Shown here in pieces: positions 1 through 6,100 of a DNA stretch of 6,100 nt (position 1 is the first letter of the stretch; each line of letters opens with the position of its first letter). The stretch is from IMG/VR virus record IMGVR_UViG_2657245050_000002. One strand, given 5' to 3'. This DNA is from a virus. Lineage: Duplodnaviria > Heunggongvirae > Uroviricota > Caudoviricetes. The notes beneath the pieces were generated by a model. It did not search any database. It was given only the letters and a program-made list of their open reading frames with translations, and was not told where the DNA came from. The position numbers and the translations under genes were made by a program.

Positions 1-21
1 AAAAAAGCCGCACAGGCGGCC
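1..21 (-). terminator. Terminator-like hairpin (GCCGC-CTGT-GCGGC) followed by a T-run, immediately downstream of D; the T-run is cut by the window edge
   Basis: On the minus strand, positions 21..1 read G-GCCGC-CTGT-GCGGC-TTTTTT: a 5-bp GC stem, 4-nt loop and at least 6 T. It lies 21 nt past the D stop codon (42..44). The stem is short, so the function is uncertain. Confidence 0.45.
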
Positions 22-41
22 TTTAGTGATGAAGGGTAAAG

Positions 42-374
42 TTAAACGATGCTGATTGCCGTTCCGGCAAACGCGGTCCGTTTTTTAGTCTCGTCGCTGG
101 CAGCCTCCGGCCAGAGCACATCCTCATAACGGAACGAGCCGGACTTGTAGAACGTCAGTGTGGTGCTGGTCTGGTCAGCAGCAACCGCAAGAATGCCAAC
201 GGCTGCACCGTCGGTGGTGCCATCCCACACAACCAGCTTACGGGTAGTGCCATCCAGCATCAGCGGGGTCATTGCAGGCGTTTTCGCACTCAATCCGCCA
301 GGCGCAATTGCTGTATGAGCCGGATCACTGTTACCCAGCGGCTGGTAATGGTTAAACTCTTCTTTTGACGCCAT
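42..374 (-). CDS. D: Head decoration protein gpD, full length (110 aa), divergent allele
   Basis: The 110-aa [113 protein letters not shown] matches lambda gpD in length. The C-terminal half matches my recollection of lambda gpD almost exactly; about 10 substitutions cluster in the first 50 residues. A GAGG Shine-Dalgarno sits about 7 nt upstream of the ATG at 372..374. Confidence 0.9.
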
Positions 375-383
375 AACTGCCTC

Positions 384-439
384 TTATACCGGTAAAGCTT
401 CAGGTGTATTAAGTAATTCTTTATTGGTATCAGATGCCA
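384..439 (-). pseudogene. Orphan 3' end (about 17 codons plus stop) of a divergent C/Nu3-like gene
   Basis: The minus strand reads GCA TCT GAT ACC AAT AAA GAA TTA CTT AAT ACA CCT GAA GCT TTA CCG GTA TAA, i.e. [17 protein letters not shown]. This parallels the C terminus of the intact C gene in this window (...NPASDAVNDLLNTPV*). It has no start codon or upstream reading frame of its own and is followed by the RBS and ATG of the divergent D. Confidence 0.5.
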
Positions 440-559
440 CAGCATCAGCGGGGTCATTGCAGGCGCTTTCGCACTCAATCCGCCGGGCGCGGTTGCGGTA
501 TGAGCCGGGTCACTGTTGCCCAGCGGCTGGTAATGGGTAAAGGTTTCTTTGCTCGTCAT
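440..559 (-). pseudogene. D: Truncated lambda-type D 5' fragment (first 40 codons); translation would run out of frame into the downstream sequence
   Basis: An ATG at 557..559, 9 nt after the C stop, opens [40 protein letters not shown], matching the lambda gpD N-terminus. Homology stops abruptly after codon 40 at position 440/439. The frame then continues through unrelated sequence ([21 protein letters not shown]...) to a stop at 290..292, inside the real D gene. The ORF track lists this as 290..565 because of an in-frame ATG two codons upstream. Confidence 0.6.
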
Positions 560-568
560 AAACATCCC

Positions 569-964
569 TTACACTGGTGTGTTCAGCAAATCGTTAACGG
601 CATCAGATGCCGGGTTACCTGCAGCCAGCGGTGCCGGTGCACCCTGCATCAGACGATCCAGCGCAGTGTCACTGCGCGCCTGTGCACTCTGTGGTGCTGC
701 GGCCAGAATGCGGCGGGCCGTTTCCACGGTCATACCGGGGGTTTCTGCCAGCACGCGGGCCTGTTCTTCGCGTCCGTGAGCCTCCTCACAGTTGAGGATC
801 CCCATAATGCGGCTGTTTTCTGCCGCAACCGCAGAGGTGATCTGCGCGTTCACGTCCGGCTGCGCCGCGCTGGCGTTTTCGCCCTCCGTAGCTGGCACCA
901 CGTCAGTAACGTCAGCCTGCGAAGCAGTGGCTGAAACAGTTGTTGATTGAGTCTCTTTGGTCAT
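569..964 (-). CDS. Nu3: Scaffolding protein gpNu3, nested in frame in the 3' part of C (131 aa from the internal ATG)
   Basis: An internal in-frame ATG at 962..964 is preceded by a perfect AGGAGG Shine-Dalgarno at 969..974 and opens MTKETQSTTVSATASQADVTDVVP... The product is Ala/Gln-rich and acidic. A longer nested form starting at MDATRR (569..1174) is an alternative annotation that I cannot exclude. Confidence 0.65.
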   Translation of the reverse strand: MTKETQSTTVSATASQADVTDVVPATEGENASAAQPDVNAQITSAVAAENSRIMGILNCEEAHGREEQARVLAETPGMTVETARRILAAAPQSAQARSDTALDRLMQGAPAPLAAGNPASDAVNDLLNTPV

Positions 965-1955
965 TCGCCCTCCTGAGAGACGGGATTTACGTGCATCCAG
1001 TGCATCACGCATAACGGTGATCGCATCGGTGCTGTTGACAAGTTCATCAGCCAGTCCGGCATCAATGGCCTCCTGACCGCTGTACACTGCAGCCTCTGTA
1101 TCCAGCACAGCCTGCACAGACAGGCCGGTATATGCCGACACCTTCTGCGCAAACATCCGGCGGGTTGCATCCATCCGGGACTGCAGTGTCTCCCGGACGT
1201 CATCCGGAAGATGGCTGTAGGGGTTGCCATCCACCTTATGGCTGCCGCTGTAAATCAGCGTGATTTCCACACCCTGTTTCTCCAGCGCAGCACCGTAATT
1301 ACTGTGAGCCATCATGACGCCGATGGAGCCTGTCCGGGCGGTCTGCGTGACCAGACGCCGGGAGGCGGCACTGGCAAGCAGCTGACCTGCACTGCAGTTT
1401 ATGTCGTTGGCCAGCGCCCATACCGGTTTTATGTCTCGCACACGGGCGATGATGTCAGCACAGTCAAATGCTCCCGCCACCATCCCGCCTGGCGTAGCCA
1501 GCGCCCATACCGGTTTTATGTCACGCACACGGGCAATGATGTCAGCGCAGTCAAATGCTCCCGCCACCATTCCGCCTGGCGTGTCCATATCGAGCAGAAT
1601 GCCGTCCACCATCGGATCGCTGGCAGCCTGTTGCAGACGGGCGATAATGCCGTTGTAACCGGTCATTCCCGAATACGGCTGCAGCGCCCGTGTCCGGCTG
1701 ACCAGCGTACCGGACACCGGCAGCACGGCGATGCCGTTCATGACCTGATAACTGCGGGCCTGTCGTGGTCCGTCATCATCACCGGATAATGCCAGCGTCG
1801 CGAGTGCCTCCTGGGCAGTCAGGCTGTCGCCGGACACCGCATCCGTCAGGCGACTGATCCCAAGCTGGCCTGCAAGCGCACAAAAGAAAACCCGCGCATA
1901 AGCGGGTTCAAGCATCAGCGGCTCATTAAAAGCCATGCTGGCAATATGCGGGAGA

Positions 1956-1975
<20 letters not shown>
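569..1975 (-). CDS. C: Prohead protease / minor capsid protein gpC, carrying an in-frame 29-aa tandem duplication (468 aa here; 439 aa expected)
   Basis: The translation from the GTG at 1973..1975 reads (M)TAELRNLPHIASMAFNEPLMLEPAYARVFFCALAGQ..., the lambda gpC N-terminus. This GTG start gives the 20-nt overlap with the end of B that is typical of lambda. The track's 513-aa ORF starts at an upstream ATG (2110) that would overlap B by 155 nt, so I do not use it. The ORF is 87 nt longer than lambda C because of the duplication at 1410..1583. The CSAGQ motif that I recall as containing the catalytic Ser166 of lambda gpC follows the duplication. Confidence 0.85.
969..974 (-). promoter_or_regulatory. 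Shine-Dalgarno (AGGAGG) for the internal Nu3 translation start inside C
   Basis: The minus strand reads TCTCAGGAGGGCGAATGACC, with AGGAGG 4 nt upstream of the ATG at 962..964. Confidence 0.6.
1410..1583. repeat. Imperfect tandem direct duplication, two copies of 87 bp, inside gene C
   Basis: Units at about 1410..1496 and 1497..1583 align base for base with 5 mismatches (plus-strand 1436, 1449, 1459, 1483, 1496 against 1523, 1536, 1546, 1570, 1583). Both copies encode the same 29 aa, TPGGMVAGAFDCADIIARVRDIKPVWALA. The junction could equally be placed 1 nt to the left. Confidence 0.9.
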
Positions 1976-5656
<3,681 letters not shown>

Positions 5657-5682
<26 letters not shown>

Positions 5683-6100
5683 TCAGCAACCCCGGTATCA
5701 GTTCATCCAGCGCGGCTGCTTTGTTCATGGCTTTGATGATATCCCGTTTCAGGAAATCAACATGTCGGTTTTCCAGTTCCGGAAAACGCCGCTGCACCGA
5801 CAGGGGGATCCCGTCGAGAATACTGGCAATTTCACCTGCGATCCGCGACAGCACGAAAGTACAGAATGCGGTTTCCACCACTTCAGCGGAGTCTCTGGCA
5901 TTTTTCAGCTCCTGTGCGTCGGCCTGCGCACGCGTAAGTCGATGGCGTTCGTACTCAATAGTCCCTGGCTGCAGATCTGTCTCGCTGGCCTGCCGCAGTT
6001 CTTCAACCTCCCGGCGCAGCTTTTCGTTCTCAATTTCAGCATCCCTTTCGGCATACCATTTTATGACGGCGGCAGAGTCATAAAGCACCTCATTACCCTT
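5657..6100 (-). CDS. Nu1: Terminase small subunit gpNu1, partial (N-terminal about 33 codons lie beyond the window edge)
   Basis: The reading frame is open from the window edge (KGNEVLYDSAAVIKWYAERDAEIENEKLRREVEELRQAS...) to a stop at 5657..5659 (...LIPGLLSEYIEQSG*). This matches lambda Nu1 residues about 34 to 181. The GTG at 6088 used by the ORF track is an internal codon, not the start. Confidence 0.9.

Follow-up and report, generated by a model that had tools for sequence, protein, structure and literature searches.

A short AT-rich patch at 384-436 lies among the GC-rich head genes of a tailed phage in the window, as we call the whole stretch of 6,100 nt analysed here, and it raises the question of whether such an outlier of composition betrays the genome from which it came. 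The preliminary description of this DNA took the patch for the orphan remnant of a C-gene tail that uses codons rare in the rest of the window, and held that it stems from a different lambdoid genome of lower GC content and not from a local duplication with drift. The question is therefore twofold, namely where the patch belongs and what its composition signifies.

Layout of the head gene block and composition of the patch

The minus strand of the window carries a lambda-type head gene block composed of Nu1 (partial, 5657-6100), A (3757-5682), W (3554-3760), B (1956-3557), C/Nu3 (569-1975) and D (42-374). C/Nu3 encodes an S49 peptidase with a nested scaffold (Pfam Peptidase_S49, E = 1.8e-43) and ends in its own lambda-type tail, NDLLNTPV and stop; its length of 468 aa is due to an internal duplication of 29 aa. 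D is an intact head decoration gene of 110 aa (Pfam HDPD, E = 8e-21). Between C and D two extra pieces are found, both on the minus strand. One of them, designated D' (440-559), is what a junction has left of a second D gene, of the lambda type: codons 1-40, identical to lambda D at 119 of 120 positions. The other is a stretch of 65 nt (375-439) that contains the patch and is made up of three parts: the remnant of a C/Nu3 3' end of the type found in phage Perceval (384-431, last 15 codons and stop, 31% GC, 100% identity to phages Perceval and PhiR47_2); the last bases of this Perceval-type C segment (432-439, TGGCATCT on the gene strand, codons ..L A S), whose limits follow from a three-way alignment of the junction and from blastn; and a 9-nt spacer from the C stop to the D start (375-383), in the sequence of which the Perceval-type D ribosome-binding site (GAGG) can be read. 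On translation, the open frame of D' extends over 290-559 and passes through the AT-rich patch out of frame. Its predicted product of 89 aa would join 40 aa of gpD to 49 frame-shifted aa, with the frame ending 85 nt inside D, and it matched no Pfam family.

At the opposite side of D, directly after the gene, the minus strand holds at 1-24 a GC-rich hairpin (GGCCGCCTGTGCGGC) and then a T run (TTTTTT), cut by the edge of the window. This hairpin corresponds to the lambda D-E stem-loop, and a 'terminator' feature is among the annotations under the HK629 match; a pattern scan of window positions 1-700 made no terminator call for it.

The minus-strand sequence quoted in the preliminary description sits at 384-431, and the range 384-436 given for it holds five bases more. 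In a sliding comparison of 53-nt stretches, 384-436 had 32.1% GC against 56.7% for the whole window, 3.8 standard deviations under the mean, and tied for the lowest value among 6,048 overlapping stretches; only four stretches were equally low, all with starts at 373-384. The binomial probability of so low a value is 2.6e-4 per stretch, and about 0.03 when approximately 115 independent stretches are allowed for. Read in the C/Nu3 frame, the patch had a codon index of 0.36 relative to the six genes of the window, where the mean is 0.75; none of the 1,879 15-codon stretches taken in frame from D, C, B, W, A and Nu1 had so low a value. Its GC3 was 2/15 (13%) against 62.6% (binomial P = 1.3e-4). 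The patch is thus more AT-rich than its flanks, as had been claimed, and an outlier in both GC content and codon usage. The claim of rare codons fared less evenly: TTA, used twice in the patch, is truly rare, with 4 occurrences among the 1,963 codons of the window's genes, but AAT is common enough (20 uses, 31% of Asn codons) and ATA is absent from the C frame. CCT (6 uses) and GTA (7 uses) are likewise rare in these genes. The lambda-type C tail of the same window (569-612) is also a local GC trough, at 47.7%, and the sequence around it ranks as the second-lowest cluster in the window by GC content.

The native 3' end of a Perceval-type C/Nu3 allele

A blastn search with positions 375-445 against 50,697 phage records, of the kind proposed in the preliminary description, led to the source lineage of the patch. 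At 65 of 65 bases, positions 375-439 matched the C/Nu3 3' end of phages Perceval and PhiR47_2, in both cases under a Nu3/capsid assembly gene annotation, and the other matches in these records were at chance level (E = 0.6). Of 5,426 complete E. coli genomes, 227 also contained the 65-nt patch, annotated in each of them as 'S49 family peptidase' and with at least 99% identity in 217 of the 227; the whole C-D locus was found in 3,212 of the 5,426. With a degenerate peptide pattern of 11 residues, the tail peptide was recovered on 64 contigs, 35 from IMG/VR and 29 from JGI metagenomes, all of which have an intact C body before the tail. The 65 nt were identical on 60 of these contigs and the 9-nt spacer on 63. 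In the window, the patch shows the conserved C-terminal motif (..LLNTP..V, stop), followed by GAGGCAGTT and the ATG of D. A minority allele of C/Nu3, the Perceval type, naturally ends in this patch, which consists of 15 codons, a stop and a 9-nt spacer with the D ribosome-binding site and adjoins an intact D gene of the same lineage, its normal companion.

The C/Nu3 3' ends of Escherichia phage Perceval (OV696612, Bievrevirus), of PhiR47_2 and of the prophages of E. coli CE10, IAI39 and Combat11I9 display the same 65 nt, the same spacer and the same downstream D allele as the window. In this group an intact C reads in frame into the tail, whereas in the window the tail is preceded by 40 lambda-type D codons; above 439, D' is read in another frame, and continuity with an upstream C/Nu3 coding sequence is lost. 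The patch in the window no longer codes for a C terminus, and the D' ORF passes through it in another frame, but it still supplies the upstream flank and the Shine-Dalgarno sequence of the intact D. Unless the join was created by faulty assembly, the patch is a remnant that does not function as a C terminus; if the join is such an artefact, the patch would be nothing more than the functional 3' end of an intact C gene. Its identity and composition hold in either case. As the end of an allele the patch is known and annotated; what is new is its junction, which rests on one assembly. The HindIII (AAGCTT) and AgeI (ACCGGT) sites in the patch, beside D, brought to mind an engineered linker or a lambda display vector, an explanation rejected because the same 65 nt occur in the 227 natural E. 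coli genomes and the 64 environmental contigs.

The foreign stretch is wider than the patch. Window positions 1-439 are 98.2% identical to Perceval; against lambda, 1-376 reach only 92.8% and 377-439 have no match. The following segment, 440-1495, is 97.9% identical to lambda, 99.4% to a prophage of E. coli 266917_2 and 93% to Perceval, and 1497-6100 is approximately 98.3% identical to all references. D' agrees with the window's own D at 105 of 120 positions (87.5%), and the first 120 nt of the latter agree with D of the Combat11I9 prophage at 119 positions and with that of lambda at 104. According to the mismatch map, D is of the Perceval/CE10 type over about 137-374, so the Perceval-type stretch covers about 137-439 and includes a D gene at 56% GC. 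The arrangement is that of a heterologous partial duplication of 185 nt, in which a lambda-type C tail and D' are followed by a Perceval-type C tail and a full D.

We also observed that 1-136, comprising the 3' end of D and the D-E spacer, is identical to lambda except for one mismatch at 87 and differs from Perceval-type sequences at 25, 26, 37, 40 and 41, which implies a homologous switch back to the lambda type somewhere in 42-136. As the lineage switches again at 1496, the window holds at least three parental lineages.

This layout would also match a tandem partial duplication, within one genome, of the segment from the C tail to D codon 40, one copy having drifted afterwards. The two copies, however, differ by 12.5% in D', by a 12-nt indel and by many substitutions in the tail, when the remaining window is only about 2% from its relatives, and each of them has its own widespread natural allele, to which it is 99-100% identical. 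A local duplication with drift is thus extremely improbable, as the preliminary description had maintained, and its view that the patch originates in a different lambdoid lineage agrees with the 65/65 identity to Perceval and PhiR47_2 and with the 227 E. coli genomes. A simulated or randomly altered sequence was rejected because the private substitutions of the window are no more numerous than in its natural relatives, with 16 of the 20 at third codon positions.

It is sequence identity, and not AT content, that points to this foreign origin, and the lower GC content attributed to the donor is not supported. The head region of Perceval has 57.2% GC against 56.4% in lambda; its C gene has 60.9% GC without the last 48 nt and 31% within them, and its D gene 56%. 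On all 64 contigs with the tail, C upstream of it has 60-63% GC. The patch does deviate from its flanks as a horizontally acquired low-GC segment would (32% against 57% GC), but no donor lineage of matching low GC accompanies this deviation, and the limits of the odd composition, which are those of the patch, do not coincide with the limits of the foreign segment, about 137-439 with its D at 56% GC. No lower-GC version of the tail was found in 185,579 species genomes, IMG/VR, JGI metagenomes or the 50,697 phage records.

A fragment of a lower-GC lambdoid genome, with composition as the trace of its donor, would explain why the GC (32%) and GC3 (13%) of the patch are outliers in the window and why the synonymous changes relative to the lambda tail (TTG>TTA, CTG>CTT, AAC>AAT, CCA>CCT and GTG>GTA) are all to A/T. 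Nevertheless, the two phages, 227 genomes and 64 contigs all have the tail in a C gene of about 61% GC, beside a D gene of about 55% GC, and the same-lineage segment of the window runs on through a D of normal GC. The degenerate peptide search of IMG/VR and JGI metagenomes returned neither a version of the tail in other codons nor an AT-rich context, the pattern DTNKELLN gave no confirmed locus with a Perceval-type tail in the 185,579 species genomes, and the remaining phage matches are those at chance level. We consider such a donor improbable; it is conceivable that an AT-rich phage absent from present samples contributed the tail long ago, given that five of the synonymous differences from the lambda tail go to A/T. 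The composition marks the allele and not a low-GC donor. As first written, the claim about the patch matters little, the patch being a known, annotated allele end whose AT-richness is no donor signature. In more general terms, a low-GC donor should not be read from a short outlier unless the donor is found.

Local GC troughs and the translation start of D

In lambda, the C/Nu3 tail (ending in ASDAVNDLLNTPV and stop) and the C-D junction (J02459, 5700-5750) are codon-for-codon homologous to those of the patch (D..N.LLNTP..V, stop). Like the patch, the lambda tail lies directly before D and constitutes a local GC trough; it differs in having 48% GC, in being four codons shorter (no EALP) and in a stronger predicted RNA structure around the D start. 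Likewise, C ends in a related tail in 19 species of Enterobacteriaceae, with a GC content of 0.40-0.54 in the tail (last 48 nt) against 0.56-0.62 upstream, and the terminal residues DL[LM]NTPV and stop are found in 18 of the 19, Cedecea alone being different. In 120 IMG/VR contigs the GC content is likewise lower in the tail, 0.40-0.52 against 0.65 upstream. All C-tail alleles that we examined form local GC troughs, and the Perceval-type tail is the extreme of this general pattern. The species with the common ending include members of Buttiauxella, Kluyvera, Trabulsiella, Citrobacter, Enterobacter, Kosakonia and Phytobacter.

DNA diversity in the tail is low in both alleles. The mean pairwise difference is 0.15% in the Perceval-type tail against 4.75% upstream and 1.9% downstream, and 0.36% in the lambda-type tail against 4.65% and 4.2% in its flanks, in sets that were chosen by the encoded peptide, a choice that partly forces the low values in the tail. 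Since it removes only non-synonymous variation, the synonymous sites of the C tail also look constrained. The last 16 codons of C appear to be constrained at the DNA level, as part of the region in which translation of D starts. The near-zero diversity had suggested a young, recently spread import, a possibility rejected because the lambda-type tail is equally low in diversity, which makes this a general feature.

The predicted RNA structure from -65 to +30 of D has an energy of -13.8 kcal/mol with the AT-rich tail, compared with -23.7 kcal/mol for the lambda type, and the fold energies of the AT-rich flank did not differ significantly from those of shuffled sequences (z = -0.1 and -1.3). Based on the low synonymous diversity, the position directly upstream of the D start and the weaker predicted RNA structure, we favor a constraint on translation initiation: the AT-richness may reflect a weakly structured initiation region for the very abundant D capsid protein. 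A short stretch of deviating composition in a phage gene can be a lasting local trait of one allele, as in the present case, where it lies just upstream of a highly expressed gene. A structured RNA or a promoter in the patch was rejected, with no Rfam family matched, no promoter or terminator patterns in window positions 1-700 and a fold no better than that of shuffles.

The lambda-type C-end/D-start region of the window (530-624, minus strand) folds at -23.7 kcal/mol with z = -2.07, 4 of 200 shuffles being as good, and contains a predicted helix that reaches from the end of C over the ribosome-binding site of D to its start codon.

The conserved end of the C peptide suggests a role in the protein as well. 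The lambda interaction map reports contacts of Nu3 with E, C, B and itself and gives no detail on its C-terminal residues (PMC3224144); we infer that the C-terminal motif might serve in docking to the capsid.

Two heterologous junctions and the origin of the arrangement

The junction at 439-440, where the Perceval-type C tail meets codon 40 of the lambda-type D, is blunt and non-homologous in the three-way alignment. The two parents have no base in common at the join, and CCAG occurs near it in both. The A at base 439 is found in the Perceval-type allele only, which has CTG where lambda has CCG. The identity profiles and the blunt join are those of an illegitimate-recombination joint, with an abrupt switch of lineage and no homology. 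The lambda-type segment that begins here (440-1495, minus strand, 1,056 nt) overlaps its neighbors at both ends, by 185 nt on one side, from the C tail to D codon 40, and by 86 nt plus one odd base on the other. The second overlap gives rise to a heterologous tandem duplication of 87 nt (1409-1495 and 1496-1582, minus strand), which is in frame, lies in the S49 peptidase domain of C and repeats the 29 aa TPGGMVAGAFDCADIIARVRDIKPVWALA. Its copies differ at four synonymous sites, which match natural polymorphisms of different lineages, and a 1-nt filler or mismatch is found at 1496.

The junction sequences of the window are GGTATCAGATGCCACAGCATCAGCGGGG and CCGCCTGGCGTAGCCAGCGCCCATACC. Searches of complete E. 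coli genomes, IMG/VR, GTDB species genomes and JGI metagenomes returned no copy of the 439|440 junction, and the junction of the 87-nt duplication was not found in E. coli genomes, searched with a 41-nt junction query, or in IMG/VR. The duplication had at first seemed a common natural allele, apparently present in 127 genomes at 99% coverage, but this was rejected: the similarity search had joined two non-colinear pieces, and the C gene in one such genome has the normal 1,320 nt, so the count is void. For junctions of tandem duplications a short, junction-centred query is needed, as a long one falsely matches genomes with a single copy.

Taken together, these data make it highly probable that the patch is the end of a Perceval-type C/Nu3 gene, AT-rich as an intrinsic property of its allele, which was stranded by a non-homologous join between related lambdoid (pro)phages. 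Illegitimate recombination, or a double template switch, between two such (pro)phages would have joined the lineages: a lambda-type piece carrying the 3' two-thirds of C, its own tail and 40 D codons would have been linked to the Perceval-type tail at 439|440, and the same piece would end at its other side in the second heterologous duplication, in C.

The arrangement rests on one assembly, and neither junction is present in any other sequence of the collections searched, which is also what an error of assembly or scaffolding would produce. Two normal lambdoid prophages, one of the lambda/266917_2 type and the other of the Perceval/CE10 type, could have given a chimera in which a 1,056-nt contig of the first was placed into the second, and if the diverged overlapping ends were left unmerged both tandem duplications would be false. 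It is in keeping with such a chimera that a single piece, 440-1495, overlaps its neighbors at both ends, that these overlaps are 87.5% and 95% identical and hence too diverged for automatic collapse, that E. coli genomes often contain several prophages of this kind, in up to seven places per genome, and that an odd base stands at 1496. The lambda-type segment and the one after it also start exactly 26 nt from copy-distinguishing variants, the former from the nearest one at 466 and the latter before that at 1523, which may be coincidence. However, de Bruijn assemblers join sequences through shared k-mers and 439|440 shares none, and the 87-nt duplication keeps C in frame, though this would happen by chance in one of three cases. 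As a contig-end signature of k = 27 the distances to the variants are not convincing, with 26 nt on one side of each junction and 0 nt and 12 nt on the other sides, which a simple picture of this kind does not fit. We regard a chimera as rather unlikely, and are somewhat inclined to accept both the 439|440 junction and the junction in C as real products of recombination. To the more specific proposal, a very recent double illegitimate recombination or template switch between co-resident lambdoid prophages that left a raw mosaic intermediate, its duplicated flanks untrimmed by selection, we would give about an even chance.

Novel joints in the mosaic genomes of lambdoid phages reportedly led Hendrix and colleagues to a model of illegitimate recombination. 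The window resembles such joints in its abrupt switch between two lineages without homology. Surviving novel joints are usually located at gene borders and without duplication, whereas the joint in the window cuts through genes, does not preserve the frame and still has duplicated flanks, which would suit a very recent or unselected product, or an artefact. Complex rearrangements by replication template switching (FoSTeS/MMBIR) have been described mainly for chromosomes. The window is similar to these in that two nearby junctions bound one inserted piece, both of them duplicating, with blunt or 1-nt-filler joins. If the junctions are real, the window would provide a rare view of a non-homologous exchange between lambdoid prophages that has yet to be trimmed, that is, of the raw intermediates predicted by the illegitimate-recombination model of phage mosaicism and rarely seen; if they are false, it would be a clear case of false tandem duplication arising in assembly from paralogous prophages.

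In the course of these searches, near-identical copies of the lambda C-D region were also observed on short or approximately 48-kb contigs of low coverage in assemblies labelled as Pseudomonas, Shewanella, Bradyrhizobium, an Akkermansia MAG, Kitasatospora, Paenibacillus and others, which most likely represent contamination of assemblies with lambda DNA.
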